A DNA stretch of 64,000 nucleotides from an uncultured delta proteobacterium (GCA_963763745.1 CAVXQJ010000016.1:321029-385028); one strand, 5' to 3'; positions 23,229 to 56,138 are shown, counted from the stretch's first letter. The notes: generated from the sequence alone by a model not told the origin. Numbers and translations: made by a program.

Positions 23229-23268
23229 GCTCAGGTCGTCCCGGAGCGGCGTCAGCCGCGACGAGGAG

Positions 23269-32085: not shown

Positions 32086-32091
32086 GTTCCC

Positions 32092-32595
32092 ATGGCTTCC
32101 GAAGACACACGGCCCAAAGTCCGCATGCTGCTCACGATCGGCATCGTGTCGGTGTCGCTGCTCGTGGGCATCAAGTTCGTGCTCGACAGCTACTACCTCG
32201 ACATGGTCGAAAACTACGAGCACGGCCTCTTGCCGAAGACGGAGCTCCTCGACAAGACGCGCACGGATCAACACGCCGCGCTCGACAAGGGCGAGAACGG
32301 AAACATCCCGGTGAGCGTCGCGATGCAAACGCTCGCATCGAAGGGACGCGACAACGCCGACCCGCTCATCACGGCGCAACCCTCCGATGACATCGAGCCG
32401 CTCAAAGGTTGGACGAAGCTCCAACACCAAGTTCACCTCCCTCCACAAGTGACGACGATCGCGCCGCCTCCTCCGCAAGCACCGCTCGGCGACGCGGGCG
32501 CGACCACCGCGACGGACGCGGGCGCACCGCCGAAAGACGCGGGCGCTCCACACGTGATCCAACACCTCGACGCGACGAAAGACGGAGGCAAGTAG
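32092..32595 (+). CDS. Small membrane-anchored protein (possible ActG-like accessory subunit)
   Basis: One N-terminal TM helix (MLLTIGIVSVSLLVGIKFVL) and a Pro/Ala-rich tail. It sits between actF and sco1. Confidence 0.45.
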   Translation: MASEDTRPKVRMLLTIGIVSVSLLVGIKFVLDSYYLDMVENYEHGLLPKTELLDKTRTDQHAALDKGENGNIPVSVAMQTLASKGRDNADPLITAQPSDDIEPLKGWTKLQHQVHLPPQVTTIAPPPPQAPLGDAGATTATDAGAPPKDAGAPHVIQHLDATKDGGK

Positions 32596-32597
32596 CA

Positions 32598-33458
32598 GTG
32601 AGCCTCCGCGTCGTCCTCGTCGTGCTTCTTGCGCTTCTCGCGACCACACCGGCGTTCGCTCAATACGCGGGCGCGACGGGCGGTCAAGAGACCCCGCAAG
32701 CCGTGCTCGATGACGTCGGCGTGAGCGAGCAGCTCGACGGCCAAGTCCCGCTCGACGCGATCTTCAAAGACGAACAAGGCAAGATGGTTCGCTTCGGCGA
32801 CTTCGTCGACGGCAAACGGCCCGTCGTGCTCGTCCTCGCGTACCACTCGTGCAAGACGCTTTGCTCGTTCGTGCAGAACGCGGTGCTCGACTCGCTCAAG
32901 GCGATTCGGTGGACCGTCGGCAACGAGTTCGAGGTCGTCACGCTGAGCATCGACGCGCGCGACACCGTCGCCATCGCGAACGGCAAGAAGAACGAAACGA
33001 TGACGTCGTACGCGCGCGAAGGCGCGTCGCGCGGCTGGCACTTCCTCACGGGCGACGATCAAAACGTCCACCGCGTCTCGGACGCCGTCGGTTGGAAGTT
33101 CCACAAAGACATCGACGGCGAGATCGCCCACCCAGCCGCGGTGATGCTCCTCAAGCCGAACGGACGCGTCGCGCGATACCTCTACGGCATCGAGTTCGCG
33201 CCGAACGACATGAGCCTCGGTCTGCTCGAAGCGTCCGAGGGCCACAACATCACGACGATCGATCGCATCAAGCTCTATTGCTACCACTACGACCCGCACC
33301 AGCGGAAATACGCGCTGCTCGCGACGCACGTGATGGAGATCGGCGGCGGGCTGACCGTGCTGCTCCTCGCCGCGTTCATCGGCGGCATGTGGCTCAAGGA
33401 GCGGCGCAGCAAGAAGACGACGGACGTTTCACCTCGCATCGCGGAACAGACGCCATGA
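32598..33458 (+). CDS. sco1: SCO1/SenC copper chaperone (thioredoxin-like, for CuA assembly)
   Basis: GTG start, a signal/TM segment, a CxxxC motif (YHSCKTLC) and conserved His in a thioredoxin-like fold. ATGA overlap with coxB. Confidence 0.75.
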   Translation: MSLRVVLVVLLALLATTPAFAQYAGATGGQETPQAVLDDVGVSEQLDGQVPLDAIFKDEQGKMVRFGDFVDGKRPVVLVLAYHSCKTLCSFVQNAVLDSLKAIRWTVGNEFEVVTLSIDARDTVAIANGKKNETMTSYAREGASRGWHFLTGDDQNVHRVSDAVGWKFHKDIDGEIAHPAAVMLLKPNGRVARYLYGIEFAPNDMSLGLLEASEGHNITTIDRIKLYCYHYDPHQRKYALLATHVMEIGGGLTVLLLAAFIGGMWLKERRSKKTTDVSPRIAEQTP

Positions 33459-34465
33459 TTCACCACCTTCTCACTCCACCGCCTGCAGCCTTCGATCTCC
33501 CGCCGGCCATCGCCGCCGAATCGGGTGAGGTCGATTGGCTGTACAACATGATTTATTACGTCAGCGTCTTCTTCACGGTGATCATCACCGGGCTGATGCT
33601 GTACTGGGTGCGCATCTACAAGCGGAAGCCCGGCGACAAGCGCATGGACACGCCGCACTTCCCGCGCCTCGAGATTTTCTGGACGGTCGTCCCGATCTTC
33701 TTCGTCATCTTCTTGTTCCACGCGGGCTTCAAGGCGTTCATGAAGCAAGCGATCGCGGCGCCCGATGCGCTCGAGATTCGCGTGCGCGGACAGAAGTGGT
33801 TCTGGACGTTCACGTATCCGAACGGTCGCCAAGAGAACAACCACTTGTATTTGCCGGTCGGCAAGCAAGTGAAGTTCGTCATCTCCGCCGCCGACGTGCT
33901 CCACTCGTTCTACGTCCCCGGCGCGCGCGTGAAGAAGGACGCGGTCCCCGGCATGTTCACGACGATGGTGTTCACGCCGACCTCGCTCGGCGACACACCC
34001 GTCTACTGCGCGGAGTACTGCGGCGCGCCCATCGGTTATCCGGAGCCCGCGCTCGATGGCGCGCCCCACGGCGGACACTCCGCGATGATGGCGATGATCC
34101 ACGTCGTCTCGCAGGAAGAGTTCGACAAGATGCTGCGCGAGGGCCCGAAGAAACCCGAAGGCATGAGCGACGCGGATTGGGGCAAGAAGCTCTACAAGGA
34201 GAACGCGTGCTTGACGTGTCACTCCGTCGACGGCAGCAAAGGCACCGGTCCGACGTGGAAGGGCATGTTCGGCAAACCCGTCGAGCTCAACGCCGCGCTG
34301 TCGGGCGGCATGGGAAGCACGACGGCCGATGAGGCCTACGTCCACGAGTCGATCGCGAAACCGCAAGCGAAGGTCGTGCTCGGCTTCAACCCCGTCATGC
34401 CGCCGTATCAGCTGTCGAACAAGCAGGTCGACGCGATCATCGAGTACATGAAGTCCTTGCAGTAG
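33455..34465 (+). CDS. coxB: Cytochrome c oxidase subunit II with a fused C-terminal cytochrome c domain (caa3-type)
   Basis: Two TM helices. CuA site H...CAEYCG...H..M. C-terminal CLTCHS heme c domain. Confidence 0.9.
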
Positions 34466-34482
34466 AAGAGGCGAGATTACCC

Positions 34483-36135
<1,653 letters not shown>

Positions 36136-36137
36136 CC

Positions 36138-36902
36138 ATGACTGAAGCGGCAGCGGAACACGACGAACACGAGCACGCCGGGGAGGAGCACCACGGCGAT
36201 CATCCCAAGTGGCTGCAACACCACTGGGACACGCCCGCGCAGCAATTCGACGCGGCGAAGATCGGCATGTGGGCGTTCCTCGGGCAGGAGCTGCTCTTCT
36301 TCAGCGGGCTCTTCGTCGCCTACGCGATTTTCCGCACGTGGTACGGCGCGGCGTTCGCGGCGGGCTCGCACGAGCTCAATCGCACGATGGGCGCGGCGAA
36401 CACGTGCGTTCTCCTCTTCTCCAGCTTGACCGCGGCGCTCGGCGTCCGTTCGTCGCAGCTCGGCAAGAAGAACGAGACGTCGATGTGGATCGTCCTCACG
36501 ATCGCGTGCGCGTTCATCTTCTTGGTCGTGAAGTACTTCGAGTACCACGCGAAGTTCGAGCACGGCCTCTTGCCGGGGTCGTTCTTCGGCACGCCGCGCG
36601 ACATGCTCACGTTCCAGCCGCTCGTCGGGCACCACTCGCCCGCCGAGGAGCTGCCGGATCACACGCACGTCTACTTCTCGCTGTACTTCATCATGACGGG
36701 CATCCACGCGCTCCACGTCATCATCGGAATCGGCGTGTGGATCTGGATCCTGAAGCGCAACCTCCGCGGCGATTTCTCGAAGCGGTATTTCACTCCGGTC
36801 GACGTGACGGCGCTCTACTGGCACCTCGTCGACCTCGTGTGGATCTACCTCTTCCCGCTGATGTACCTCATCGACTACGTGCCGCCTGGCCACAAGGGCT
36901 GA
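36138..36902 (+). CDS. coxC: Cytochrome c oxidase subunit III
   Basis: 254 aa, polytopic. The C-terminal helices are typical of subunit III (HVIIGIGVWIW, LYWHLVDLVWI). Confidence 0.85.
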   Translation: MTEAAAEHDEHEHAGEEHHGDHPKWLQHHWDTPAQQFDAAKIGMWAFLGQELLFFSGLFVAYAIFRTWYGAAFAAGSHELNRTMGAANTCVLLFSSLTAALGVRSSQLGKKNETSMWIVLTIACAFIFLVVKYFEYHAKFEHGLLPGSFFGTPRDMLTFQPLVGHHSPAEELPDHTHVYFSLYFIMTGIHALHVIIGIGVWIWILKRNLRGDFSKRYFTPVDVTALYWHLVDLVWIYLFPLMYLIDYVPPGHKG

Positions 36903-36907
36903 CCGCC

Positions 36908-37483
36908 ATGACCGAAGAAGAAAAAGAGCACGAAGAGCACGAGGAAGAGGGTCACGATCACGATCATGATCATGATCACGACCATGATCACGATCCATAC
37001 GATCACGATCACGATCACGGCGAAGAAGGGCCCTACGGCGCGGACGAAGTGCACGCGCACATCGGGTCGTACAAGCTTTATGGCGCCGTCTTCGTCGCGC
37101 TGATCTTCTGCACGCTCCTCACCGTGGGCGTCGCGGCGATTCACCTCGGCAAGGCGAACCTCGCGGTCGCCGTCATCATCGCGTCGATCAAAGCGGCGCT
37201 CGTCTGCACGTTCTTCATGCACTTGAAGGACGACAACAAGTTCAACTCGCTCATCCTCATCGCGGCGGTCACGTTCATCGGCGTCTTCTTCGCGCTCACG
37301 CTGAACGACGTGAGCTATCGCGAGAAGCTCGACACGCAGAGCGGCAATCGCGTGTTCCTCCAGTCGGGCGACTCCGCGCCCGGAAGCTGGGAGAACCCCG
37401 TGAAGAAGGAAGAGAAAAAGGAAGAAGCCGCGCCGGCTCCGGCTGGAAGCGGCAGCGCTGCGCCGGCCCCAAAGCACGAGTGA
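36908..37483 (+). CDS. coxD: Cytochrome c oxidase subunit IV (prokaryotic caa3 small subunit) with a (His-Asp)n N-terminal repeat
   Basis: HIGSYKLYGAVFVALIFCTLLTVGVA matches the CoxIV-like helices. The N-terminus has GHDHDHDHDHDHDHDPYDHDHDHG. Confidence 0.7.
   Translation: MTEEEKEHEEHEEEGHDHDHDHDHDHDHDPYDHDHDHGEEGPYGADEVHAHIGSYKLYGAVFVALIFCTLLTVGVAAIHLGKANLAVAVIIASIKAALVCTFFMHLKDDNKFNSLILIAAVTFIGVFFALTLNDVSYREKLDTQSGNRVFLQSGDSAPGSWENPVKKEEKKEEAAPAPAGSGSAAPAPKHE
36945..37020 (+). repeat. Hexanucleotide (CAY-GAY)n microsatellite-like repeat encoding (His-Asp)n
   Basis: cacgatcacgatcatgatcatgatcacgaccatgatcacgatccatacgatcacgatcacgatcac within coxD. Confidence 0.8.
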
Positions 37484-40645: not shown

Positions 40646-43426
40646 ATGTCTTCACTTCGCTTCGTCTTGGTCGCGTTTTGTGTGCTGCACGGGTGCGATT
40701 GCTCCGAGCCACCGCCCATCACGCCTGCAACTTGGGAAATCGTCGGCAGCTCGCTCCCGAGCGCGCTCATGTCCGTCGGCGGAACCTCGTCGACCGACGT
40801 CTACCTAGCCGGCGCAGACAAAGGCTCCGGCCCGCTCGTCTTCCACTTCGACGGAAAGGCGTGGACCGAGCTCCAGACGGGCGTGAGCGGCGATCTCTGG
40901 TGGGTGCACGCGTTCACCGGTGGCCCCGTTTTCTTCGCCGGCGCGAATTCGCTCCTCCTTCGCTACGACGGAAACACGTTCGAGCGATTGCCCGTACCCG
41001 GCCTCGCGCGCCAAACGATCTATGGCGTGTGGGGCACGAGCCCGACGGACGTGTACGCAGTCGGCGGCGCCGCGGGTCGCGAAGGATTCATCTGGCACTA
41101 CGACGGACAAAGCTTCACGCCGGTGGATCTTCCGCAAGACACGCCGCGCACGACGAACGGCGAGGTGCCCGGTCTCTTCAAAGTGTGGGGGCAAGGGGAC
41201 GACGTGTGGGTCGTCGGCGGCGCGGGAACGATCTTGCACAAGAAGGGGAGCGGCGCGTTCACCAACGTCCCGAGCGGAATGGCGGACACGCTCTTCACCG
41301 TGAGCGGCGACCAGACGCGCGTCGTCGCAGTCGGCGGCGCCAGCAACGGTGAGGCCGTGCTCGGGAGCGCGAGCGGATTTGCGAACGCATCGCCGCAAGC
41401 GGCGGGCCTCCTCCAAGGCGTCGACGTCGCGCCCTCCGGCGACGTGTGGGCGAGCGGCGAAAAAGGCCTGATGTATTCGTTGCAGAATGCAAACTTCGTC
41501 CAAGTCGATCACGGTCTCCCGCTGACGGTAGGCTCGCTCCACGCGACGTGGGTCGACGACGTGGGCGGCGTGTGGTCCGTCGGCGGCAACGTGCTCACGG
41601 CGTCGCTGGATCAGGGCGCCGTGATTCACTACGGCGCGCAGATCCCCGCGCTCCCGTACATTCCCGGTCCCGAAGCCGGGACCGACGCGCCGCCGCCGGT
41701 CACGTGTCCGCAATCGGTGATCGACGTGGCGAAGGACAAATCCATCGCGCGGCGGTGGGACGAACAAACGCTCGCGTCGATTCGTCGCGATGTCCCGCGG
41801 CCGACGGTGCACGCGCGAAACCTCTATCACGTGAGCGCGGCGATGTGGGACGCGTGGGCCGCGTTCGACAACGTCGCGGAGGGCGTCTTCGTGCGCGAGA
41901 AACAAACTTCGTCGAGCGTGGACGCGGCGCGCGCCGAAGCGATTTCGTACGCCGCGTATCGCGTGCTCCTCGATCGCTACACGACCGCGATCGGCGGCGC
42001 GACGGACGTCGCGTGTTACCGCGCGGTCATGCAAGCGCTCGGTTACGATCCCGACGACAAGACCGACACGGGCGCGACGCCGCGCGCGCTCGGAAATCGC
42101 GTCGGCGAGGCCATCATCGCGAAGGGCGCCGTCGACGGCTCGGATCAATCGAAGAACTACGCCGATCCGAACCCGTACGTTCCCGTCAATCCGCCGCTCG
42201 TCGTCGACGACGTCGGCACGACGTTGAACGATCCGAACACGTGGCAGCAGCTCAACTTGTCCGTCGCGCAGACGCAGAACGGAATCATCTTGCCCGCGGG
42301 CATTCAGGGGTACATCGGCTCGCAGTGGGGAAGCGTCGTGCCGTTTGCGATGACGCGCGTGTCCGATCAAGTCCCTTGGCACGACGCAGGGCCGGCGCCC
42401 GTCGTCGATGCGCAGATGACTTCGTACATCCAAGAGGTGATCACGCGATCGAGCGAGCTCGACCCGAGCGACCCAGCGATGATGGACGTCTCGCCCGGCG
42501 CATACGGCAACAATTCGCTCGGCGCGAACGACGGCACGGGCCACGCGCTCAATCCGATTACGAATCAACCGTACGCATCGGTGATGGCGCGCCGCGGAGA
42601 CTTCGGTCGCGCTCTCGCGGAGTTTTGGGCCGATGGTCCGAGCAGCGAGACGCCGCCGGGACATTGGAACGTGATCGCGAACCTCGTCGCCGACTCGCCC
42701 AATTTCGGATTCCAACTCTTCGGGACCGGCACGCCGCTCGATCCGCTCTCGTGGGACGTGCACGTGTATCTCGCGGTGAACGGCGCCGTGCACGACGCGG
42801 CGATCACCGCGTGGGATCTCAAGCGCCGCTCCGTCAGCGTGCGACCGATTTCGCTCGTCCGATGGATGGGCGCCATGGGAACGCTGCCCACCGTGCCAGG
42901 CGTGATCGAGACGATCACCGACGCGTCGAGCGCGCCCGGCGAGCGCCACGCGCACCTCGCGCTCTACAAAGGCGAGACGGCCATCTACGCGTGGCGCGGC
43001 GAGCCCGCGGATCGCAAGACCCAGGTCTCGGGCGCGGGATGGATTCGCGCGGTCGACTGGATGCCGTATCAGCGGCGCACCTTCGTGACGCCGGCGTTTC
43101 CCGGTTTCATCTCCGGTCACAGCACGTTCAGCCGCGCGGCCGCCGAGGTGCTCGCGACGCTCACCGGCTCGCCGTATTTTCCCGGCGGGCTCGCGGAGTA
43201 CGTTCTCCCGCAAGACAAGTGGCTCACGTTCGAGCTCGGTCCATCGGCGGACGTTCACTTGCAGTGGGCGACGTACTACGACGCGTCCGATCAAGCGGGT
43301 CAGTCGCGCATTTGGGGCGGCATCCACATCACCGCGGACGACTTCGCGGGCCGCAACCTCGGGAGCCTCGTCGGCAAGGATGCCGTCGCGCTCGCGGCGC
43401 AATACTTCAACGGCACCGCGCCCTGA
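40646..43426 (+). CDS. Lipoprotein with an N-terminal beta-propeller-like repeat region and a C-terminal PAP2-superfamily / vanadium-haloperoxidase-like domain
   Basis: Lipobox VLHGC-D. Repeated ...VWxVGG... blades. The C-terminal motifs KRRSVSVRP, PGFISGHSTFS and SRIWGGIHITAD match the PAP2 KxxxxxxRP / PSGH / SRxxxxxHxxxD pattern. Confidence 0.65.
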   Translation: MSSLRFVLVAFCVLHGCDCSEPPPITPATWEIVGSSLPSALMSVGGTSSTDVYLAGADKGSGPLVFHFDGKAWTELQTGVSGDLWWVHAFTGGPVFFAGANSLLLRYDGNTFERLPVPGLARQTIYGVWGTSPTDVYAVGGAAGREGFIWHYDGQSFTPVDLPQDTPRTTNGEVPGLFKVWGQGDDVWVVGGAGTILHKKGSGAFTNVPSGMADTLFTVSGDQTRVVAVGGASNGEAVLGSASGFANASPQAAGLLQGVDVAPSGDVWASGEKGLMYSLQNANFVQVDHGLPLTVGSLHATWVDDVGGVWSVGGNVLTASLDQGAVIHYGAQIPALPYIPGPEAGTDAPPPVTCPQSVIDVAKDKSIARRWDEQTLASIRRDVPRPTVHARNLYHVSAAMWDAWAAFDNVAEGVFVREKQTSSSVDAARAEAISYAAYRVLLDRYTTAIGGATDVACYRAVMQALGYDPDDKTDTGATPRALGNRVGEAIIAKGAVDGSDQSKNYADPNPYVPVNPPLVVDDVGTTLNDPNTWQQLNLSVAQTQNGIILPAGIQGYIGSQWGSVVPFAMTRVSDQVPWHDAGPAPVVDAQMTSYIQEVITRSSELDPSDPAMMDVSPGAYGNNSLGANDGTGHALNPITNQPYASVMARRGDFGRALAEFWADGPSSETPPGHWNVIANLVADSPNFGFQLFGTGTPLDPLSWDVHVYLAVNGAVHDAAITAWDLKRRSVSVRPISLVRWMGAMGTLPTVPGVIETITDASSAPGERHAHLALYKGETAIYAWRGEPADRKTQVSGAGWIRAVDWMPYQRRTFVTPAFPGFISGHSTFSRAAAEVLATLTGSPYFPGGLAEYVLPQDKWLTFELGPSADVHLQWATYYDASDQAGQSRIWGGIHITADDFAGRNLGSLVGKDAVALAAQYFNGTAP

Positions 43427-43482: not shown

Positions 43483-44841
43483 ATGCAATGGGCAACTCTC
43501 ATGCGGAAGTTCGTCCTCGCGACAGCGGCGCTCTCCATCCTCGTGCTCGCGCGGCCGACACCCGCTCACGCGTGCGGCGGTTGCTTCTCGCCGCCGTCGC
43601 AGAATCCCACGGTCGTCACCGATCACCGGATGATCCTCAGCGTCTCGCTCCAGCAGACGACGCTCTACGACCAAATCGAATATTCGGGCGCGCCCGAGTC
43701 GTTCGCCTGGGTCCTCCCGATCGCCGGCACGGTCGACGTGGGTCTATCGGCGGACATCGTCTTCGACGTGCTCGACTCGCTCACGCACACGACCGTGTTC
43801 GCGCCGCCGCTCGGCTGCGCCCCGCCGCCGTATTGTCCGTCCGGCGCGGATGCTGGCGTCGCGCTCGAAGACGCGAGCGCGGGCGGCGTGAACGTCCTCA
43901 AACAAGAAGTCGTCGGCCCGTACGAGACCGTCCAGCTCCAGAGCACCGATCCGCAAGCGCTCAACACCTGGCTCACGAGCCACGGCTACGACGTTCCGTC
44001 GGACGTGCAGCCCGTCATCGACGCGTACGTGAGCGAGGGTTTCGATTTTCTCGCGATGAAGCTCGTGCCCGGCGCGAGCGTTCAATCGATGCGGCCCGTG
44101 CGCGTGACGACGCAAGGCGCGTCGCCGGTTCTCCCGCTTCGCATGGTCGCCGCCGGAACGGGAACGAACGTCGGCATCACGCTCTGGATCGTCGGCGAAG
44201 GTCGCTACGAGCCGCAGAACTTCCCGTTCTTCCGCATCGAAGACAGCGAGATCGTCTGGGACTACGCGACGCAATCGAGCAACTACGCGACGCTCCGCCA
44301 AGAGCACGAGCAAACGCTCAGCGGGCGCGGTTGGGAGATGGAGAGCTCGCTCTCTCTCGACGTGCCCACCGTCGAATCGCAGGTTCGATATGGAGGCACG
44401 TATCCGTATTACGGTTACGACGCAGGTGCCGACTACGATCCAATCACGACGGCCGACGGCGGAACGGAGACGCCCGACCAAGCGCGCGACGCGGATCTCG
44501 CGACGCTCTTCGCCGGCGTGAGCACGCCGAACGCGCGCGTCACGCGCATCCGCTCGGACATCGCGCGCGCCGCGCTCACGGCGGATCTCTCGCTTCAGGC
44601 ATCGCAAGATCAGAGCGTCCTCGCGAGCAATCGATACCCGACGAGCTCGATCAACAAACCCGCGTGTCCGAAATACCCGAGCTGCCCGACCGAAGACGCG
44701 GGCGACAACTCGATCCACGCGTACGGCGGAAGCGGGTGCGGCGTTTCACCCGAGAGTGATGGGAACGGCTTCTTGTGGATGTTCGGCGGCGTCGCGATGA
44801 TGATCGCGCACGGCGTGCTGGCGCGGCGTCGCAAACGCTGA
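43483..44841 (+). CDS. DUF2330-like secreted protein with a MYXO-CTERM tail (paralog 1)
   Basis: Signal peptide, then AHACGGCF. It ends ...GSGCGV...LWMFGGVAMMIAHGVLARRRKR. The start is at 43483 or 43501. Confidence 0.7.
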   Translation: MQWATLMRKFVLATAALSILVLARPTPAHACGGCFSPPSQNPTVVTDHRMILSVSLQQTTLYDQIEYSGAPESFAWVLPIAGTVDVGLSADIVFDVLDSLTHTTVFAPPLGCAPPPYCPSGADAGVALEDASAGGVNVLKQEVVGPYETVQLQSTDPQALNTWLTSHGYDVPSDVQPVIDAYVSEGFDFLAMKLVPGASVQSMRPVRVTTQGASPVLPLRMVAAGTGTNVGITLWIVGEGRYEPQNFPFFRIEDSEIVWDYATQSSNYATLRQEHEQTLSGRGWEMESSLSLDVPTVESQVRYGGTYPYYGYDAGADYDPITTADGGTETPDQARDADLATLFAGVSTPNARVTRIRSDIARAALTADLSLQASQDQSVLASNRYPTSSINKPACPKYPSCPTEDAGDNSIHAYGGSGCGVSPESDGNGFLWMFGGVAMMIAHGVLARRRKR

Positions 44842-44853
44842 CAAACTTCCTCG

Positions 44854-46197
44854 ATGCTTCGACTATTTTCGTGGGGTGCGCTCGCAGCGCTCGCGATGGT
44901 TCCGATCTCGCTCGAGCGCGACGCGCGCGCGTGCGGCGGTTGTTTTCGCCCGACGCAAGTCGTGACGGCGGTGAACGCGCACCGCATGGTGTTCTCGGTC
45001 TCTCCAGAGCAGACGGTGCTCTGGGATCAATTCACGTACTCGGGCAATCCGCAGGATTTCGCCTGGGTCCTCCCGGTGCACGCGGCGGGCGTTCAAGTCC
45101 AGCTCGCGCACGACGAGTTCATCGCGGCGCTCGACGCGTGGACGGCGCCGGTGATTCGAGGTCCGCAAGCTACCGGCGGCGGTGGTTGCAGCTCGAACGC
45201 GACTTCGTTCGAAGGGCCCGGCAGCGGCGGCGTCACCGTGATCAACCAACAGATCGTCGGGCCGTACGAAGTCGCGACGCTCGCGGCGACCGATCCGGGC
45301 GCGCTCGAAAATTGGCTCGCCGCGCACGGCTACGAGATCCCATCGAACGTCCAGCCGACGATCGCCGCGTACGTGGCCGGCGGGTTCGATTTCATCGCGC
45401 TTCGTTTGCAACCCGGTCAAGGCGTCGCCGCGATGCAACCCGTTCGCGTCGTGACGAGCGGCGCGGACCCGACCCTCCCGCTTCGCATGGTCGCGGCCGG
45501 CGTCGGCGCGGACGTGAGCATTCTCCTCTACGTGATCTCGGAGGGCCGATTCGAGACCGCGAACTTCCACAACCTCACGATCGACGAATCGAAGCTCGCG
45601 TGGGACAAGAACGCGAACAGCTCGAACTACGACTCGGTGATCAAAGACACGATGACGGGCGGCGACGGTCGCAACTTCGTCGTGGAGTTCGCCGGCCACC
45701 TTTTCTCGAACGATCCGTCGATCAACTCGAGGCAAGCGTTCACGCAGTTCTATTACAGCGGCGCGACGCAAGCGCAGAAGTGTCCGTATCAGTCGATCGA
45801 CGGACCGGATTTCTCGAGCATCGTCACGAATCCTTTCGACGCGAGCTCGGGCTTCGGCGATGCGAGCACGAGTGATGGCGGCGCGAGCGATGGCGGCGGG
45901 ACGCTCGCCGCGCCGTACGACCAGTGCTTCTTCGACGACCTCACGACGGCGACGCAAGGAATGAATCGCAACGACGTATTTCTCACGCGCCTCCGCGCCG
46001 ATCTCGCGGTCGCTTCGCTCGACAAAGATCTCGTGGTTCAAGCGGCCGCGGATCAATCGCCGTACGACAACGTCCACAACGTGACGCAGAGCACGAGCGG
46101 ATGCGCCACCGCAAACGAAGCGCCCGATCGCGGCATGCTCGTCGTGCTCTTCGGCACGCTCGCCGCGCTCTTCGCGTGGAAGCGCCGTGCGCGCTAG
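44854..46197 (+). CDS. DUF2330-like secreted protein with a MYXO-CTERM tail (paralog 2)
   Basis: ARACGGCF after the signal peptide. It is colinear with paralog 1 (FAWVLP, VGPYE, HGY.PS, EGFDF, MQPVRVTT, LPLRMVAAG). It ends SGCATANE...LVVLFGTLAALFAWKRRAR. Confidence 0.7.
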   Translation: MLRLFSWGALAALAMVPISLERDARACGGCFRPTQVVTAVNAHRMVFSVSPEQTVLWDQFTYSGNPQDFAWVLPVHAAGVQVQLAHDEFIAALDAWTAPVIRGPQATGGGGCSSNATSFEGPGSGGVTVINQQIVGPYEVATLAATDPGALENWLAAHGYEIPSNVQPTIAAYVAGGFDFIALRLQPGQGVAAMQPVRVVTSGADPTLPLRMVAAGVGADVSILLYVISEGRFETANFHNLTIDESKLAWDKNANSSNYDSVIKDTMTGGDGRNFVVEFAGHLFSNDPSINSRQAFTQFYYSGATQAQKCPYQSIDGPDFSSIVTNPFDASSGFGDASTSDGGASDGGGTLAAPYDQCFFDDLTTATQGMNRNDVFLTRLRADLAVASLDKDLVVQAAADQSPYDNVHNVTQSTSGCATANEAPDRGMLVVLFGTLAALFAWKRRAR

Positions 46198-47125
46198 CGC
46201 GATTGCGCTCGCCGCCGCGTTCGCGTGTCGATCCGAATCGCCCGGCACGCTGACGGCGGGCATCGAGGACAGTCAGCTCGGAGATTATCTGCAGAGCGTT
46301 CACGTCGTCACGACGGCGGACGGCGTCGTGACGAGCGACACGACGTACCGCGCGTCGCAGGGCGCGCTCTTTCCGCGCGAAGTGAAGATGGATCCGCACG
46401 GAGATCCCGAAGCGCTCGCGTCGGTGCGCGTCGAGGGGTTCGCGACGGACGATCCGTCGGCGTCCGCGCCCGCGATCGTGCGCACCGCGGAGACGACGAT
46501 GTCGCCCGCGCCGTGGAACAAGCTCCTCCGCATCGATCTGGATCCGCTGTGCGTCACGCTGCCGCCATCGGGCGGGATCGTCGGACCGACGTGCTCGCAA
46601 CCGGGCACGACGTGCATCGCCGGCAACTGCGTGAGCGACATGATCGACCCGGCGTCGCTGCAGGACTATCAGACGAACTGGCCATCCGCCGCGCCCGACG
46701 TGTGTCGCCCCGCGAACCCGGGCGCGCCCATCGTCGTCGTCGGCGAAGGGCAGTCCGACTACTTGCCGCTCACCGATGGCCAAACGCTCCAAGCGCAGAC
46801 GGGCCCGCAAGGCGGTCATCACATTTGGATCGCGACGCGCATGCAGAACTTGAAGCAATCGGGATCGACGACGACGGTGACCGCGGTGCAACCCGGCACG
46901 GGAGCTACCGTCGCGCCGTTCTCCGTCGTGTTCACGTTTCTTCCGGACGACGGCGGCTTCTGCAAGCTCTACGGGCTTCGATTTCAGCTCGACGCGAACG
47001 GTGTAGATTACACGCAATTTCTCGGAAAGCCTCTCGACGTCACCGTCACGATCGCCGACTCGCTCGGCGAGACGGGGAGCGGCATCGCGCACATCAACCT
47101 CGACACGACGGTGCTCCCTCTCTAG
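46187..47125 (+). CDS. Secreted Cys-containing protein of unknown function
   Basis: N-terminal signal peptide (MRASAIALAAAFAC). Protein-like 312 aa. It overlaps the previous gene by 11 nt. Confidence 0.5.
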   Translation: MRASAIALAAAFACRSESPGTLTAGIEDSQLGDYLQSVHVVTTADGVVTSDTTYRASQGALFPREVKMDPHGDPEALASVRVEGFATDDPSASAPAIVRTAETTMSPAPWNKLLRIDLDPLCVTLPPSGGIVGPTCSQPGTTCIAGNCVSDMIDPASLQDYQTNWPSAAPDVCRPANPGAPIVVVGEGQSDYLPLTDGQTLQAQTGPQGGHHIWIATRMQNLKQSGSTTTVTAVQPGTGATVAPFSVVFTFLPDDGGFCKLYGLRFQLDANGVDYTQFLGKPLDVTVTIADSLGETGSGIAHINLDTTVLPL

Positions 47126-47140
47126 GTCGCGTGCATCCTA
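47117..47140. terminator. 7-bp perfect inverted repeat (ctctagg-N10-cctagag) spanning the stop codons of two convergent genes
   Basis: Seen directly. Both genes end in TAG inside the stem arms. There is no U-tract, so this is only a weak terminator candidate. Confidence 0.25.
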
Positions 47141-48157
47141 GAGCGAACCGCCGAAGCCGATCTCGAGCCCGCCCGGGATCGGAAATGCGAGCGGGGAGAT
47201 CGAGACGTCGGAGGGGCGCGGCACGCGCGGCGCGCCATCTTTCGGAAGCCACGCGGTCGCGATGAACGTGGACACGAAGCCGATGCCGCTCCCGATCGCG
47301 ATCGCAGCGAAGGAGTCGGGCGCCTTGCAGTGATCGATGCACGCGAGACCGGGGATCACCGCGCCGCCGATCCAACCGAGGTCGATCAAATGCACGCGGA
47401 GCGTGCTCGGCGAGAGCCACGTCGCGGTCGCGATGCCGCCGGCCGTGCCCGCGATCCCCGCGAGCGCCGCCGTGATGCCTACGTTGCGATTGCCTTCGGG
47501 GTCGAAGGCTGGCGTTGGATATCCAGCGGGTCGCGATGCGGCGCCCGCGAGGCTCCCCGCGAACAAACCGCCGAAGAGCCCGGTCGTCGCGACCCACGAT
47601 GCGCGCCCCGGCGTCGTCTTCACGAAGCGCGTGAGAACGAGCCCCGTCGCGAGCCCGACGGCCGGACCGGCGAAGATCCACGCGATGTCCTTTCGATACG
47701 TGTGAAACGACGACGTCGCGCGGTTCGCGAAGTACTCGTTCCACGCGATGGCTTCGCCGAGCCCGAGGAGCATGCTCGTCGATACGATCGTCGGAGCGCC
47801 GCGCTCGTAGTGGTTCACGTGATCGATGAGGGGGACGAGTGCCGCGCCGAGAGGCGCGGTGAGCAGCGTGGCGAGCTCCGCGCCGATCGCCGCGCGCGCG
47901 AACGGGCTCGGCTGCGACATCCCGTCGATGAAGAGCGGCACGGAGCCTGCCCATTCGATCATCGTGAGGTAGAGAAGAACGAGCTCGCCGGGCTCGCGCC
48001 GGTTTGGATCGTGTGGGCGTCGCGGCTTTTTGACGTTCGTCTCGTCGAGCGTCGGTGTGTCGTCGTCGACGGCGACGTCTGCGAGCGCGCTGCGTGGCGC
48101 GATCAGCGCGAGCGCGATCGCCGCCGCACCAGCGACGCAAGCGCGATGAGCATGAGC
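47138..48157 (-). CDS. Integral membrane protein of unknown function (start uncertain)
   Basis: ORF 47138..48250 has several hydrophobic helices. Its 5' end overlaps the DUF2330 gene, so the true start is probably internal. Confidence 0.4.
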   Translation of the reverse strand, partial: AHAHRACVAGAAAIALALIAPRSALADVAVDDDTPTLDETNVKKPRRPHDPNRREPGELVLLYLTMIEWAGSVPLFIDGMSQPSPFARAAIGAELATLLTAPLGAALVPLIDHVNHYERGAPTIVSTSMLLGLGEAIAWNEYFANRATSSFHTYRKDIAWIFAGPAVGLATGLVLTRFVKTTPGRASWVATTGLFGGLFAGSLAGAASRPAGYPTPAFDPEGNRNVGITAALAGIAGTAGGIATATWLSPSTLRVHLIDLGWIGGAVIPGLACIDHCKAPDSFAAIAIGSGIGFVSTFIATAWLPKDGAPRVPRPSDVSISPLAFPIPGGLEIGFGGSL

Positions 48158-49635
48158 GACGTCGAGATCACGTTTCGATTTTCGCCGGCCGTCTCGCATC
48201 CACATCCATCTTTCGGCGGCGGGGAAGCAGTCGCCGGCGCGTTGGGACAAGGGTCGTAGCTCGGATCACTGTACGCGCTCGTCTGGATCGTGGTCGAGAG
48301 GGTCGATTGGTCGCCGCTCGCTTTGAGCTTCAAGTCGACCGCGAGCGCGTTCGCGGGGAGCGTCGTACGGAGGCGCGTCACGCGAATGTCGTAGGCATTC
48401 ATCGATTGCGTGGCGACGTCATAGTCGGTGAAGTACATGCACGCGGGTACGTAGTCGACGCACGTCGATGCGTCCGGTGCGCTGCCGTCGGCGATGCCGC
48501 CGTCGCTCGTCGTCGTCGTCGTGTCGTCGCTCGCGTCCGACGCATCGTCGCTCGCGTCGTCGCCGGCCTCCGCGGTCGCATCATCCATCGCGTCGTCCGT
48601 CGCGTCGTCGGGTGCATCCGTCGCCGCGTCGGGCGTGCCGCCGTCGTCGGGGCACGCGACGGGAACTTGCGGCGCCTTCAAGCACGCTGCTTGGTAGAGG
48701 CTCCCGAGATTGCCCACGGGCACGGACGATTCCGTCACCCAGCCGACGCCAGCCGTGACGGTGGTGTCGAACAGCTCCGAGTAGTTCGAGCGCTGAGCGG
48801 CGCCGTCCCAGACGACCTTCGAGCGATCGACGAGCAGCGCGGGAAAGCTCGAGGACTCGTAGCGACCTTCGCCGATGACGTAGAGCGTGAGCCCGACGGA
48901 CTGACCGATCCCGGCGGCGACCATGCGAAGCGGGAGCGTCGGGTCCGCGCCGGGCGTCGTCACGCGAACGGGTTGCATCGCGTTGACGCCCTCGTTCGGC
49001 GCGAGCTTCAGCGCGATGAAGTCGAAGCCTTCGTTCGTGTACGCGTCGAGCACGGGCTGGATCGACGTGGGAATGTCGAACCCGTTGTCGGTGAGCCAGG
49101 TCGAGATCGCTTCGCCGCTCGACGATCGAATCGTGACGGCGACGTATGGACCGACGACCTCTTGGGAGATCACGGTGACGCCGTTGCCGCCGTCGAAGTT
49201 GGCGCTCGCGTCGGCGTAGTTTCCGCCGCTGTACGAAACGGAGCTGTCGGATGCGCCGCAGCCGAACCCGCCCCCGCCACCGCCGCCATTGAATGCGCCG
49301 CAGCGCGACGGAAGCGGCGGCGAGTAGACAGCAGGGCTACTCGTGATGTCGAGCGCTTGAAGCCACTCGTCGCGCGCCAGATCGATCGTCGCGCCTTGTC
49401 CAACCGGGAGGACCCAGGCGAATTCGCTCGGGTTGCCCGTGTAACGAATCTGATCCCAGAGCACCGTTTGCGACGTCGAGATCGAAAACGCCATGCGGTG
49501 GTCGGTGACGACGCTCGTCGTCTGGTTCTGCCCCGGCGGCGGATGAAAACAACCTCCGCACGCGTGAGCGGGCGGCGCGTAAGTCACGATGGCCGCGAGA
49601 CCGAAGAGCGAAGAAAGAAGGAGTTGACGATTCAT
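48103..49635 (-). CDS. DUF2330-like secreted protein with a MYXO-CTERM tail (paralog 3), carrying an acidic Asp/Ala/Thr-rich insert
   Basis: AHACGGCF after the signal peptide. It shares the blocks of paralogs 1 and 2. It ends GCGCETAGEN...LMLIALASLVRRRSRSR. Confidence 0.7.
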   Translation of the reverse strand: MNRQLLLSSLFGLAAIVTYAPPAHACGGCFHPPPGQNQTTSVVTDHRMAFSISTSQTVLWDQIRYTGNPSEFAWVLPVGQGATIDLARDEWLQALDITSSPAVYSPPLPSRCGAFNGGGGGGGFGCGASDSSVSYSGGNYADASANFDGGNGVTVISQEVVGPYVAVTIRSSSGEAISTWLTDNGFDIPTSIQPVLDAYTNEGFDFIALKLAPNEGVNAMQPVRVTTPGADPTLPLRMVAAGIGQSVGLTLYVIGEGRYESSSFPALLVDRSKVVWDGAAQRSNYSELFDTTVTAGVGWVTESSVPVGNLGSLYQAACLKAPQVPVACPDDGGTPDAATDAPDDATDDAMDDATAEAGDDASDDASDASDDTTTTTSDGGIADGSAPDASTCVDYVPACMYFTDYDVATQSMNAYDIRVTRLRTTLPANALAVDLKLKASGDQSTLSTTIQTSAYSDPSYDPCPNAPATASPPPKDGCGCETAGENRNVISTSLMLIALASLVRRRSRSR

Positions 49636-50043: not shown

Positions 50044-51537
50044 GTCGCGATCGCGATGCCGAGCTGCTTGCGCAATTTCGCGTAGCGGTCGCTCGACACG
50101 AAGACGAGGAGATCGTCCATGCGCTCTTGCGTCTTCGTCTTGTCGTCGAGATCGAAGACGCGATTGCGCGGCGCGAAGATCGTTGGCGAGGAGGAGCCCC
50201 GCGCGGCACACCGTGCGATCGACGCCGCTCGCCCAGCGCTGCAAGTTCGTGCGCCCGCCTTCTTCGACGAAGCGCAGGAAGTGTCCGCGGAGCTGATCGA
50301 TCGCGAGCGGCTCGAGGATCGGCTCGATGGCCTTCGCGATCGGGACGACGATTTGTTTTCCGCGATCGTTCATCGGCATGCCGGGATTTCCGATCGAGAG
50401 CGCCGCGAGGAAAATGTCCTCGAGATCGGCGATGCCCGGAATGAGCGCGCGCATGAACTCCTGCGCGCGGTGATGCGCGAGGTGTTTGCCCGCGATGAAC
50501 GCGAGCTCCGCGGCGCTGCGGCCCGAGAGCGACTTGCCGCCGATCCGCGTCGCGGGCGGCATCGCCGGGGACGAGCTCGGCGGTGCCGTCGAAATCGGGA
50601 TCGACGAAGAGCGCCGGCGCGTGCATACCGAGGATCGCCGCGGCCCACGCGAAGCAGCGCACCGCTTGGATCGTCGAGGTCGCGGGGTCTTGGCGCTTCG
50701 TTGCGTCGAGCTTCGGCAGCGAGCTTGTCGCGTCGCAATGCGGAGACGCGACCGAGCAGAACGGCCGGCGCGACGACGGCGAAGATTTCGCCGACGAGCG
50801 GCTCTTCGTCCGGATGAAGGAGCAAGCGCGACCACGCGTCGGCCGTGAGCGCGGCCTTGGGCTTGATGAGCGCGGTCTCGCGAAACTGCGTTGAAGTGCG
50901 CGCGCTCGTCGGGCGACGCCTGATTCAGGATACACGAGCGCTTGCGCGACGCACCACTTGCCGTCGGCTTCGTTCTTCTTGTCGTACACGCGATAGAGCG
51001 AGTGAAGCGCCGCCTCGTCGCGCGGATCGTGTCGCAAGCGTCGTTGGAGCTCGATGGGATCGTCGTCGGGAACTTCCTTCGCGGTCACGCCCGAGAGATC
51101 GACCTCGACCGAGACGTTCGCGCGCGCCTCTTCGAGCTGCCGCTCGAGCTCGCGCGACGCGCGCCTCGAGGAGTGCACGCGACTTTTGCAGCGCGAGCGT
51201 TTGCTGATCGGTCGCGGGCCGACCGGCTGGAGCGAGGCGCGCGGCGCCTCTTGATCCTCCGCGCTCTCGTAGAGCTCCTTGATGATGACTTGATGCCGCG
51301 CCTCGTACGCCGACTGGAGCGCTTGCTCGAGCGTGCGCAGGCGCGCTTTGTCGAGGCCGAGCGAGTCGGCCATCTTGTCGAGCTTTTGCACGCTCTTCTT
51401 GCGTGATGATCCCGTCCTCGATCACCTCCGCGAAGAGCTCCTCGTACATCATCTCGAGCTTGCCGAGCCGCACGTTGCGCGGCGACCTCGCCGGGCTCGA
51501 ACGAAACTCTGTGCTCGAAATCGTCGTGTTCGCTCAT
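50040..51537 (-). pseudogene. Hypothetical protein gene broken by at least 6 frame changes (pseudogene or low-quality consensus)
   Basis: Protein-like segments alternate between all three minus-strand frames. In order they are MSEHDDFEHRVSFEPGEV, RLGKLEMMYEELFAEVIEDGIITQEERAK, QKLDKMADSLGLDKARLRTLEQALQSAYEARHQVIIKELYE, HDPRDEAALHSLYRVYDKKNEADGKWCVAQALVY, LLHPDEEPLVGEIFAVVAPAVLLGR, RCFAWAAAILGMHAPALFVDPDFDG, ELAFIAGKHLAHHRAQEFMRALIPGIADLEDIFLAALSIGNPGMPMNDRGKQIVVPIAKAIEPILEPL, and RVFDLDDKTKTQERMDDLLVFVSSDRYAKLRKQLGIAIAT. Confidence 0.45.
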
Positions 51538-52906: not shown

Positions 52907-54362
52907 ATGAGCGACGACGCAGACGAGCGGGCACAGCAGCGCGTCGGGAGCATGCTCAACGACAAATGGACGCTCGAACGGCTCTCGGCATCGGCGGGAT
53001 GGCGGCCGTGTACGCGGGCGTGCATCGCAACGGCGCGCGCGCCGCGGTCAAGGTGCTGCACCTGTCGCTCGCGCGGCGCACGGAGCTCCGCGAGCGGTTC
53101 TTTCGCGAAGGTTACGCCGCGAATCGCGTGGACCACTCGGGCGTCGTGAAGGTGCTCGACGACGACATCATCGAGGGCGGACCCGACGAGGGCGGCGCGT
53201 TCCTCGTGATGGAGCTCCTCGAGGGCGAGTCCGTCGAGGATCGCATGGAGCGCGGGCCGCCGATCGACGAGCGCGAGCTCCTGCGCGATCACCGCGGCCG
53301 TGCTCGACGTGCTCGCCGCCGCGCACAAGGCAGGCGTCGTCCATCGCGACTTGAAGCCGGAGAATATGTTCCTCGCGCGCGACCCGGAGAAGCCCACCGC
53401 GCCGCCGAAGATCAAGATCCTCGATTTCGGTCTGGCGCGCGTCGCCGAGGCCGGCAAACAAGACGATGGCCGGCATCGCGATCGGCACGCCGTCGTACAT
53501 GCCGCCGGAGCAAGCGGCGGGTCGCGTCTTCGAGATCGACGCGCGCTCGGATTTGTTCGCGCTCGGCGCGTCGTGCTTTCGCATTCTCGCGGGTCGCACG
53601 GTGCACCCCGCGGAGAGCGCGCTGGCGATCTGCTCGCTCATGGCGAAAGATCCAGCGCCGAAGCTCCTCACGCGTGGCGCCGAACGTGTCGCCGAAGACC
53701 GCGGCGATGGTCGATCACGCGCTCGAGTTCAAGCGCGAGGATCGTTTCCCGACGCGACCGCAATGCGCAAGGCGGTCGACGAGGCCATCGCGGATCTCGG
53801 CGGCGACACGATCGAGATCGACAGCGGCATGTACGAGGTCGAGCCGCCGCCTCCGCCGCCACCATCACCACCGCCTCCGCCTCCGCCGCCCGCGAGAGAA
53901 GAGAAACAGGAAGATCAGGAAGATCAGGAAGAAGTCGAGGTCGAGAAGAAGAAGGGTGGGGGGCTCGGGTGGGTGTTCGTGCTGCTGCTTTTGGTGGGCG
54001 GTGGCGTGGCGGCGAAGATTGCGTGGGATCGGCTTCAGCCGACGGCGCCTTTGGGCGTCGTCGATGCGGCGGGATCGGCGACGAACGTCGTCGTGGTCGA
54101 TGCGACGGTGCAAGCAGCCGTCGAAGACGTGCACGCGGAGGAAGTGCGCGAGGCGGCAAGCGAGGATGCTCCGGTCGAGGCGTCCACGGATGCAAACGTC
54201 GAAGACGGCGCGATCGACGCCACGGCGGACGTTTCCATCGACGCACCGGTCGACGCGGAAACCCTCGATGCACGAAGCACATCGATAAGTGCGCCCGACG
54301 CGGGACACCACCGCCGCGACGGCGGCGTCCACCACAACGTGCACCACGGCCACCACCACTGA
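52907..54362 (+). pseudogene. Hanks-type Ser/Thr protein kinase broken by about 5 frame changes
   Basis: The pieces are MSDDADERAQQRVGSMLNDKWTLERL (frame 2), LGIGGMAAVYAGVHRNGARAAVKVL...[14 protein letters not shown] (frame 1), [24 protein letters not shown]...[10 protein letters not shown] (frame 2), [17 protein letters not shown]...[13 protein letters not shown] (frame 0), and then a poly-Pro, TM and acidic C-terminus (frame 0). Confidence 0.7.
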
Positions 54363-56138
54363 TTGGGTTTCCAGGCGCAGCGTGTGTACAATGTGGTCGT
54401 GCAAGCGAACGCCCCGCAACCCGCGGGCGCGACCTCTCGAACCTTCGAGCGTGTCGCGGTCGTCAGAACGCTCGCGAATCGAAAGGTTCCGTCTGCGATC
54501 GTCCACGCGTTTGCGCCCACGGGCGCCGAGGTCGTCGTCGTCGAACGCCACGGGCAAGTCGACGGGGCGCTCGGGACGAGCGACCTCGACGCCATCGAAG
54601 CCGCCGCGCGCGCCGCGATGACGCTGCGTCACCCGAACGTCGCGAGCGTGCGCGACGTGTGGCGCGAGAGCGGCGAGGTGTGCGTCGCGAGCGAGTTCGT
54701 GGAAGGCGAGACGCTCGAAGAGCTTCGCCGGCTCGGGACGGGTGGCAAGGAGCTCACGCTCGAAGTCGGCGTGCGCGTCGTCGTCAATCTCCTCGCCGCG
54801 CTCAGCGCGCTTCACACGCTCGGCGCGGGGACGCTCGCGCACGGCGAGATCACCGCGAGCAACGTCATCGTCGGATTCGACGGGCTGACGCGCCTCGTGC
54901 GACCTTATCGCGGGCGCGTCGCCGGAAAAGTCGCCGAGGCCGATTGGTTTTCGTACGCCGCACCCGAAGTGATCCGCGGCGGACCCGCGTCGGTGCACGC
55001 GGATTTGTACGCGGTCGGCGTGATTCTCTGGGAGACGCTCTCGCGTCGAAAGCTTTTTCCGAAGGCCACGCGCGAGGGCCGCGCCGCGCGCAGCTTGCCC
55101 GTGGGCAAACCGTCGCCGCCGGCCGACGCGAATTGGGCCGCGCCGCTCGCGGCCGTCGCGGAGCGCGCGCTCGCGAACAATCCCGCCGCGCGTTACACGT
55201 CGGCCGCGGAGATGGCGGCTGCCGTGCGGCTCGCCGTGCGATCGAAACTGGCGATGCCACCGCGCGTCGCGGCCGCCGTGGACAAGCTCGCGGGCGAGCG
55301 CATCATCGCGCGCCGCAACACCAACGCGCTCCCCGAGGCGCTCTCGTCGCGCACGTCGGGGAGGCCGTCGCGCCCATCCGTTCCACCCGAAGCCGTGCGC
55401 GCGCTCTCCGCCATGCGACCGTCATCGCGTCCGCCAACGCCGGGCACGCCGTTCGTCGTCCCCGCGATGCCGAAGGCGGCGCCCGTTCCAACCGCGTTCG
55501 CCGCAACGCCGCCACCCGCGCCCACTGCGCCGGTGAAGCCGCGTCCGCCCGTGCCGCCGATCAAGATCGCCGATCCGACGCCGAAGCCGCCACCGGTCGC
55601 CGTCGCGCCTCCACCTCCCGTGATCGAAGAAGCGCCAATCTCGATCGATCCGTCGTTCATGAGTGAGGGCGTAGAGTCCGCGCCCGAGCCCGCGGTTGCG
55701 GCGGCTGCGCCCGTCGCGCCGCCGATCGCGCCGATCCAAGCTCCACCGACGCATGCGCCGGTCGTCGCGGAGCCGGAGGCGTTTGCTGCTGCCGGCGTTC
55801 CCCCGACGAACAAACGCGTTCCGATCATTGCGGGCGCCGCGTTGCTGCTCCTCATCGTGGCGTTCGTGATCGTGCGCGTGGCGACGAGCGGCACGAGCAC
55901 GAGCACCGCGCCATCGGCGAAGGCGTCGAGTGCACATCCGTCGTCGACGGCTCTAGCGACGAACACCGTGACCGCGCCGATGCCGTCACCGACCGAGACC
56001 GTGCCGCCACCACCGAGCGCGTCGGCGAGCGCAGAGCCCGAAACGTCAGCCGCGCCCGACAACACCGCGCCGATCCCCGACACCTCACATCGGCCGCACA
56101 CGAGACCGAGACCCACGTACGATCCCATGGGCATTTGA
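54363..56138 (+). CDS. Degenerate kinase-like protein (pseudokinase) with a Pro-rich linker and a TM helix. The start codon is uncertain (TTG at 54363 or GTG at 54399).
   Basis: It has a kinase-like fold ([43 protein letters not shown]). The HRD catalytic loop is replaced by [13 protein letters not shown] and DFG is replaced by GFDG. The intact frame runs for 1.78 kb. Confidence 0.6.

Follow-up and report, generated by a model that had tools for sequence, protein, structure and literature searches.

In the baculovirus caspase inhibitor p35, the caspase cleaves the reactive-site loop after Asp87, which then forms a thioester with the caspase cysteine (PMC7863939); the N-terminal Cys2 is essential and moves into the active site, where it stabilises the thioester and exchanges with it (PMC7863939, citing Lu et al. 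2006). Proteins of another described system, the MYXO-CTERM pathway, include many surface receptors such as TraA (PMC11980579), and the curatorial criteria for their C-terminal tails are a Cys signature, an uncharged, Pro-free helix and an Arg cluster (10.1101/2023.06.07.544157; PMC11980579). DUF2330 (PF10092) is a catalogued Pfam family that is entirely uncharacterised; our literature search on DUF2330 and PF10092 found no paper mentioning it. Here, we analysed a 64,000-nt stretch of DNA from an uncultured delta proteobacterium (GCA_963763745.1, CAVXQJ010000016.1:321029-385028; hereafter the window), in which positions 43483 to 49635 hold three DUF2330 genes, named A, B and C. Their products carry a family-wide Cys directly behind a signal peptide and have a predicted fold resembling that of p35, and we tentatively propose that they act as covalent traps anchored in the cell envelope.

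DUF2330 membership, the N-terminal cysteine pair and the C-terminal tails

The three paralogs are arranged as follows, a slash marking the predicted cleavage site.

43483..44841, + strand: DUF2330 paralog A, 452 aa; signal peptide, AHA/CGGCF, predicted p35-like beta-sandwich, variable loop with C-x5-C; tail SGCG...FLWMFGGVAMMIAHGVLA-RRRKR
44854..46197, + strand: DUF2330 paralog B, 447 aa; ARA/CGGCF; starts 12 nt after A; the protein that was modelled; tail SGCA...MLVVLFGTLAALFAW-KRRAR
48103..49635, - strand: DUF2330 paralog C, 510 aa; AHA/CGGCF; longest Gly-rich loop of the three and an acidic linker; tail DGCGC...VISTSLMLIALASLV-RRRSRSR

An earlier description of this DNA made without database searches (the sequence-only reading) had noticed three related proteins of 447-510 aa and suggested that they belong to DUF2330. 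Both observations were borne out. All three are open reading frames (ORFs), and their pairwise identity of 42-47% (BLASTP E=2e-84 for A against C) goes well beyond shared composition. A hidden Markov model (HMM) search with PF10092 matched each of them far above the gathering threshold of 24.7 bits (A, 101.5 bits; B, 116.6 bits; C, 91.8 bits; E 6e-26 to 2e-33), the match spanning profile positions 4-242 of 279. The architecture found throughout the family, in Myxococcota and Mycobacteriales alike, comprising a Sec signal peptide, an A-x-A site with a Cys pair, a C-terminal transmembrane (TM) helix and a basic, Arg-rich cytoplasmic stub, is present in all three. A, B and C are three anciently diverged DUF2330 paralogs. 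Their G+C content at third codon positions is coding-like (0.82-0.84, with 65% G+C in the window), and their exact protein sequences occur as called, unnamed genes on a public 607-kb contig.

The motif ACGGCF is identical in the three proteins and lies right behind the hydrophobic signal segment and the A-x-A site, as the earlier description had it. The colinear blocks listed there are all present, but not all of them are strictly invariant: only FAWVLP and LPLRMVAAG are identical in A, B and C, while VGPYE reads VGPYV in C, HGY.PS.QP reads NGFDIPTSIQP in C, EGFDF reads GGFDF in B, and MQPVRVTT reads MRPVRVTT in A and MQPVRVVT in B.

The DUF2330 archetype is actinobacterial (Nocardia, Mycobacterium) and roughly 345 aa long; a tblastn match in a Nocardia replicon led to a canonical member scoring 424.9 bits across the full Pfam model. 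A, B and C represent a distinct myxobacterial variant, marked by CGGC, a larger loop, an added sub-domain along with an insertion, and a tail of the MYXO-CTERM type. Nearly all of 120 myxobacterial homologs carry A-x-A-CGGC[FL]. The actinobacterial homologs (from Nocardia, Mycobacterium, Mycolicibacterium and Antrihabitans) carry A-x-A-C-A-C-G-[GA] in about 118 of 120 cases, and these same proteins have a signal peptide, usually no further Cys, and a C-terminal TM helix followed by RRR. Joint alignment revealed that C27 and G28 are invariant and A24 and A26 nearly so, together with invariant Pro, Gly, Arg, Tyr and Asp residues of the core. In the myxobacterial set, the mean column entropy of the N-terminal motif (0.77 bits) equals that of the hydrophobic core.

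Read from these alignments, the constant of the family appears to be an A-x-A signal-peptidase-I site followed at once by Cys, with a second Cys one or two residues on. The Cys behind the conserved A-x-A is invariant in about 240 family members; cleavage at this site would make it the first mature residue, presumably with a free thiol. The paired Cys that the sequence-only reading had placed at the mature N-terminus is thus the most conserved element of the family and is kept even in Actinobacteria. Because the actinobacterial Cys residues sit only two residues apart, at a flexible terminus and with no other Cys as partner, the pair, judged from sequence, must be functional rather than a disulfide that stabilises the fold. 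A cysteine exposed by signal peptidase as the one universal functional element would, according to the searches made, be new.

Two further Cys residues are invariant in the myxobacterial members, C112 in the loop and C358 in an insertion not found in actinobacteria. Their co-occurrence suggests that they probably form a disulfide, which would tether the loop in myxobacteria.

As a separate observation, residues 14-45 of A (43522-43617), covering the signal peptide and AHACGGCFSPP, gave a sub-threshold match to NCBIfam TIGR04200 (24 bits against a cut-off of 40; E 2.5e-5), the family of the PExPT-CTERM proteins, which are small exosortase J targets. We treat the match as a likeness in signal-peptide composition; a 'signal peptide-ACGGC' module common to another sorting-signal family might also account for it.

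At the other end of the proteins, the tails of A, B and C consist, in order, of a Cys signature (SGCG, SGCA and GCGC, respectively), 8-9 polar residues, a hydrophobic stretch of 15-18 residues without Pro or charged residues, and an Arg/Lys cluster. A Cys located 9-14 residues before the helix, nearly always as GC, is present in 95 of the 120 myxobacterial homologs. The MYXO-CTERM model TIGR03901 is the best NCBIfam model for 37 of 53 family tails (best E 3e-8), and the JGI annotation already calls several homologs MYXO-CTERM proteins. The author of the model describes this HMM as short and divergent and states that membership has to be reviewed by a curator (10.1101/2023.06.07.544157). On the sequence features of the tails, the MYXO-CTERM assignment appears sound at the level of the family. 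A host of this pathway is expected to be a member of the Myxococcota with a myxosortase (MrtX, MrtC or MrtP); no CPBP/myxosortase protein was found among the about 30 ORFs scanned within the 64-kb window.

Actinobacterial tails have no Cys before the TM helix. Since such a plain TM anchor persists in actinobacteria and in a minority of the myxobacterial members, the sorting signal seems to have arisen from it: a 'GC' signature, placed 9-14 residues ahead of the helix, was evidently added to the myxobacterial anchor, which so became a MYXO-CTERM-type signal, as far as the tail sequences tell. That a plain TM anchor apparently evolved into a sorting signal is new, according to the searches made. 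It may help to define the MYXO-CTERM signal, as the current HMM misses A, B and C by a fraction of a bit to about 6 bits.

Predicted fold and a possible covalent trap

An AlphaFold2 model of B, built from 116 sequences, reached a pLDDT of 79.9 and a pTM of 0.76, and a model of a Nocardia homolog reached a pLDDT of 85.9. The low-confidence parts of the B model are the signal peptide with the N-terminal motif, the loop (107-125), the acidic linker (about 330-355) and the spacer before the tail helix. In these models, the DUF2330 ectodomain is a beta-sandwich of about 270 residues whose closest structural match is baculovirus p35. The elements follow one another as an N-terminal strand, three or four strands, a helix, a disordered loop, a hairpin, two helices and further strands, an order colinear with that of p35 (1P35); a helix followed by an exposed loop, as in the p35 fold, is present in the predicted models. 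In the Nocardia model, the residues just after the Cys form the first strand (34-37), as they do in p35. This p35-like fold of the predicted DUF2330 models is new, according to the searches made.

In a Foldseek search of BFVD, a collection of predicted viral structures, a Tupanvirus protein came top, followed by p49 (probability 0.96) and then by an entomopoxvirus protein, all with low TM-scores. The top match, A0A6N1NI77 (Tupanvirus soda lake, 308 aa, uncharacterised; E 4e-5), is a predicted structure that could be a link between the bacterial and the insect-virus proteins. The second tier of fold matches consists of protein- or peptide-binding sandwiches, namely M1 N-domains, OST1, PIG-T and VIT.

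At the level of sequence, searching the PDB with family profiles gave no match even at E<=10, and A, B and C have no Pfam match to the p35 family PF02331. Aligning DUF2330 profiles with p35 by hhalign, using either a single sequence (identical to 1i4e_A) or a 7-member alignment, gave a probability of 0.1-0.4%, in a comparison of low power as the p35 alignment holds only 7 close sequences. The top hhalign segment, which is non-significant, sets the helix WL..HGY against p35 IL.SHDY, the register expected from the colinear order of elements. The suggestion of the sequence-only reading that these are a surface enzyme or adhesin found no support: no catalytic family, no solved relative detectable by sequence and no adhesin-like repeats were found.

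The loop behind the first helix is 25-50 residues long, has a mean entropy of 2.07 bits, and lies between conserved blocks of invariant length. Its features are paralog-specific and are kept in orthologs. We propose that cleavage by signal peptidase I would leave a free N-terminal 1,2-aminothiol as the functional centre, and that the flexible hypervariable loop, which would occupy the topological position of the p35 reactive-site loop, would be presented to a target enzyme. The acyl or thioester intermediate that results would next be attacked by the N-terminal Cys and trapped covalently. The three paralogs would be envelope-anchored covalent traps or inhibitors that differ in loop specificity; a predator that secretes proteases might use them to shield its own cell surface, or they might control a cysteine peptidase or transpeptidase of the envelope. 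We base this proposal on the same predicted fold, a loop at the same position and a Cys that would be the first mature residue, as in p35. To an envelope-anchored module whose N-terminal aminothiol captures acyl or thioester intermediates as a protease trap, we assign a probability of roughly 30%.

Several points weigh against the trap. The helix that leads into the loop is short, about 10 residues compared with about 22 in p35, and the loop itself is rich in Gly, Ser and Ala and has no conserved cleavage motif. In myxobacteria the loop is probably held by the C112-C358 disulfide, and an oxidising periplasm could leave the CGGC pair, too, in the oxidised state. The N-terminal segment of the B model has a pLDDT below 50, and the Foldseek TM-scores are low (0.22 to p49). 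No protease gene is a conserved neighbour in the DUF2330 contexts inspected. As to the anchor, the MYXO-CTERM tails described by the sequence-only reading hold up in their tripartite architecture and in their family-level HMM support, but each tail scores just below the curated TIGR03901 cut-off of 20 bits (C, 19.7 bits; A, 16.5 bits; B, 13.9 bits, the last from the tail alone). Furthermore, about 15-25 of the 120 myxobacterial homologs have no tail Cys or no recognisable tail, so surface display, as predicted from sequence, is not universal in the family.

As the sole reactive group conserved in all members, the Cys pair would also suit the main rival of the trap, a metal-binding or thiol-redox site in which the N-terminal amine and two thiolates (C-x-C or C-x-x-C) chelate Cu(I) or Ni(II), or form a redox-active disulfide, on a passive anchored sandwich. 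CXC peptides are N2S2 chelators and mimics of protein disulfide isomerase, a general chemistry that speaks for such a site, as does the position of the locus 6-10 kb downstream of the SCO1, cytochrome oxidase and alternative complex III genes in the window. However, no conserved His or Met accompanies the Cys pair, the Cys spacing differs between the phyla, and no metal-homeostasis gene is a conserved neighbour elsewhere. We regard this explanation as possible, if somewhat doubtful.

It is rather unlikely that the proteins are non-catalytic binders of the surface or envelope (adhesins, receptors or scaffolds), in which the loop and the acidic linker bind and the N-terminal Cys serves only as a covalent tether, for example through a disulfide to a partner. 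Such a role would fit the second-tier matches to protein- and peptide-binding sandwiches, the hypervariable loops and linkers, the receptor function of many known MYXO-CTERM proteins such as TraA (PMC11980579), and the expansion of the family in Polyangia, where genomes hold several copies and nine of the 85 DUF2330 loci are tandem arrays. It leaves unexplained, however, a first-residue Cys kept across two phyla in about 240 sequences, and it has to contend with the lack of a conserved partner gene and with actinobacterial members that are single-copy and have short loops. No partner gene is conserved across the six myxobacterial and actinobacterial DUF2330 contexts, whose neighbours are unrelated.

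Gene neighbourhood and age of the triplication

Three other genes are packed against the paralogs.

40646..43426, + strand: haloperoxidase-like neighbour, 926 aa, exported; ends 56 nt upstream of A
46187..47125, + strand: gene D, 312 aa; probable lipoprotein with a lipoprotein-type signal (AAFAC), MRASAIALAAAFAC followed by RSES
47138..48199, - strand: gene E, about 353 aa from the ATG at 48199 (longest ORF from the TTG at 48250); signal peptide and about 7 Gly-rich hydrophobic helices

The secreted Cys protein and the polytopic membrane protein that the sequence-only reading had seen beside the paralogs correspond to D and E. The D protein has seven Cys in total, six of them beyond the signal Cys and four of these six within a 23-residue cluster. 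Searches of Pfam, NCBIfam and PADLOC gave no match for D, and it has no PDB relative. The 5′ end of D overlaps the end of B by 11 nt, and D is therefore probably co-transcribed with A and B. Similarly, the start of E overlaps the last ~100 nt at the 3′ end of C, which suggests that E is probably co-transcribed with C. A promoter and terminator scan gave sites no more numerous than in shuffled sequence.

The E protein contains two 'IDH' motifs, LIDHVNH and CIDHCK. Its family is very small and without annotation, a search of 1.84 billion proteins having given 98 representatives at E<=1e-3; these relatives are mostly 400-470 aa long with an additional N-terminal region, which in some of them consists of TPR or PEGA domains. 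We ruled E out as a candidate myxosortase or other processing enzyme, as the Pfam scan found no domain in it, CPBP included, and its unannotated family is sometimes fused to TPR or PEGA. The haloperoxidase-like protein has a beta-propeller-like N-terminal third (weak Tectonin match), followed by DUF6851 and a vanadium-haloperoxidase-like helical domain (PF21167, PF22778); its PDB relatives are the vanadium-dependent haloperoxidase 9l8x_B (E 1e-14) and NapH3. A PADLOC search for anti-phage defence genes gave no match.

The nearest relatives of the locus are all Polyangia (Polyangiaceae, Labilithrix, Sorangium). A contig of a related metagenome-assembled genome, L001, is syntenic over the whole locus, with the order oxidase genes, M3 peptidase, haloperoxidase-like gene, DUF2330, DUF2330, D, E, DUF2330, response regulator and kinase; COX1, COX3 and COX4 lie upstream of the DUF2330 block there too, in a read stretch of L001 that does not take in the alternative complex III and SCO1 part. 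Positional counterparts in the two genomes (A/A′ 67%, B/B′ 70%, C/C′ 62% identity) are closer than the paralogs are to each other (44-47%), which indicates, from these identities, that the triplication is old and predates the split from L001, and that all three copies appear to have been maintained. The family as a whole has expanded in Polyangia to several copies per genome.

The tight packing of the locus, with gaps of 56 and 12 nt and the B/D and C/E overlaps, together with the synteny of the whole block in L001, invites the idea of a dedicated multi-gene system, in which the haloperoxidase-like enzyme, DUF2330, D and E act together, for example in surface oxidative chemistry with the DUF2330 thiols as substrate, sensor or shield. 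In several Polyangiales genomes the haloperoxidase-like gene lies immediately upstream of DUF2330 genes; it adjoins DUF2330 in L001/L007, L013, L051 and L063, and it recurs beside DUF2330 together with D in the more distant Polyangiales L051 and L063 (D 42%, haloperoxidase-like protein 59% identity). Nevertheless, D or the haloperoxidase-like gene is near DUF2330 in only 7 of 85 loci, all of related Polyangiales, and E in only 4, where it is found only in the closest relatives; in 76 of the 85 loci the DUF2330 gene is solitary, and each locus inspected has its own, unrelated surroundings. The same distribution would arise just as readily if related genomes had kept their synteny. As neighbours, D, E and the haloperoxidase-like gene are specific to this lineage, and we consider such a system improbable; the idea of one system that takes in the Cys protein and the membrane protein is weak.

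It is very improbable that the N-terminal Cys is lipidated and that the proteins are doubly anchored lipoproteins: the Cys does come after a signal peptide, and the actinobacterial S-A-C-A/C fits the permissive PROSITE lipobox pattern, but in the myxobacterial proteins position -3 is always Ala, not Leu, Val or Ile, and position -2 is R, H, N, E, Q, D or K, as the A-x-A rule of signal peptidase I has it, and A-x-A before the first Cys is equally conserved in actinobacteria. A, B and C lack the lipobox [LVI][ASTVI][GAS]C, and the lipoprotein reading of the N-terminal Cys was rejected for the myxobacterial proteins.

Elsewhere in the window, a respiratory block occupies 21915-37483 (+ strand) with a UbiA-family heme O synthase-like gene, alternative complex III (including an Fe-S/molybdopterin-like ActB and an NrfD/ActD fusion), a SCO1/SenC copper chaperone, COX1 and a COX3/COX4-like ORF. 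The minus-strand gene adjoining C (50046-51530) matches an intact L001 gene of 517 aa without a Pfam domain, the match being broken across three frames (51388-50567, frame -1; 50550-50161, frame -2; 50165-50046, frame -3); this implies at least two frameshifts, so that either the gene is a pseudogene or one of the two records contains an assembly error. Two further minus-strand genes, at 2742-4652 and 14912-16735, encode one IgGFc_binding-domain protein (294 bits) and one DUF885 protein (352 bits). Ser/Thr kinases, typical of Polyangia, are encoded at 8618-9919, 13431-14870 and about 52966-55666.

Significance and comparison with known systems

DUF2330 has thousands of members in two ecologically important phyla, and the p35-like predicted fold, the putative N-terminal aminothiol and the adjacent hypervariable loop together offer a concrete structural and chemical hypothesis for it. 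If the parallel with p35 were true, it would point to a cellular ancestry for the viral caspase inhibitors and to a new class of bacterial covalent protease traps. A bolder form of the idea, which we regard as a long shot, is that DUF2330 is the missing cellular relative of viral p35, p49 and p33. The bacterial proteins would be a widespread family of mechanism-based traps anchored in the envelope; signal peptidase would expose an alpha-amino-cysteine, which would use native-chemical-ligation chemistry to capture the thioester acyl-enzyme intermediates that cysteine peptidases or transpeptidases form. A bacterial gene of this kind would have been the source of p35 in insect viruses, and the paralogs would be traps with different bait loops on the myxobacterial surface. 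IMG/VR held no viral DUF2330 genes.

Envelope copper proteins of the YcnI/CopC type resemble DUF2330 in that cleavage exposes a functional first residue and in their beta-sandwich, and YcnI also has a C-terminal TM helix. Their N-terminal ligand, however, is a His, whereas DUF2330 has a Cys and no conserved His or Met.

With the MYXO-CTERM proteins (TraA and MXAN_4924, with the myxosortases MrtX and MrtC), the paralogs share the tripartite tail at the extreme C-terminus, including GCGC in C, and a host lineage among the Polyangia, and TIGR03901 is the best model for the family tails. The paralogs differ in that each scores below the cut-off of that model, and their processing by Cys-dependent C-terminal cleavage, with surface localisation through the type II secretion system, would follow by analogy with TraA (PMC11980579).

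The actinobacterial archetype in Pfam shares with A, B and C the motifs GP[YL]E, WL..[HN]GY, [FW].F[IV]A[LM]RL, PVR[VL] and [LY]P[LM]RM, as well as significant HMM matches and the succession of signal peptide, A-x-A with Cys pair, sandwich, C-terminal TM helix and Arg-rich stub. Identity is only 18-24%, however, and the match of A-C reaches Pfam position ~240 of 279. The myxobacterial proteins have CGGC where the archetype has CAC, a Gly-rich loop that is longer and includes an invariant Cys, an insertion of 60-120 residues plus an acidic linker with C358, an extra C-terminal sub-domain and a tail with the 'GC' sorting signature, and they are multi-copy with tandem arrays, whereas the archetype is single-copy.

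Compared with p35/p49 (1P35, 1I4E; PF02331), DUF2330 shows no detectable sequence similarity. The viral p35 is a soluble protein of the cytosol that has a long alpha1 stalk and is cleaved at a defined DQMD site, whereas DUF2330 proteins are exported and anchored in the membrane or at the surface, with a second Cys by the first, a short helix and a Gly-rich loop, and their inhibitory function would be one drawn by analogy. What the two have in common is the colinear secondary structure, as predicted, with a helix and then an exposed flexible loop, and a Cys directly before the first strand, which in DUF2330 would likewise be the first mature residue.

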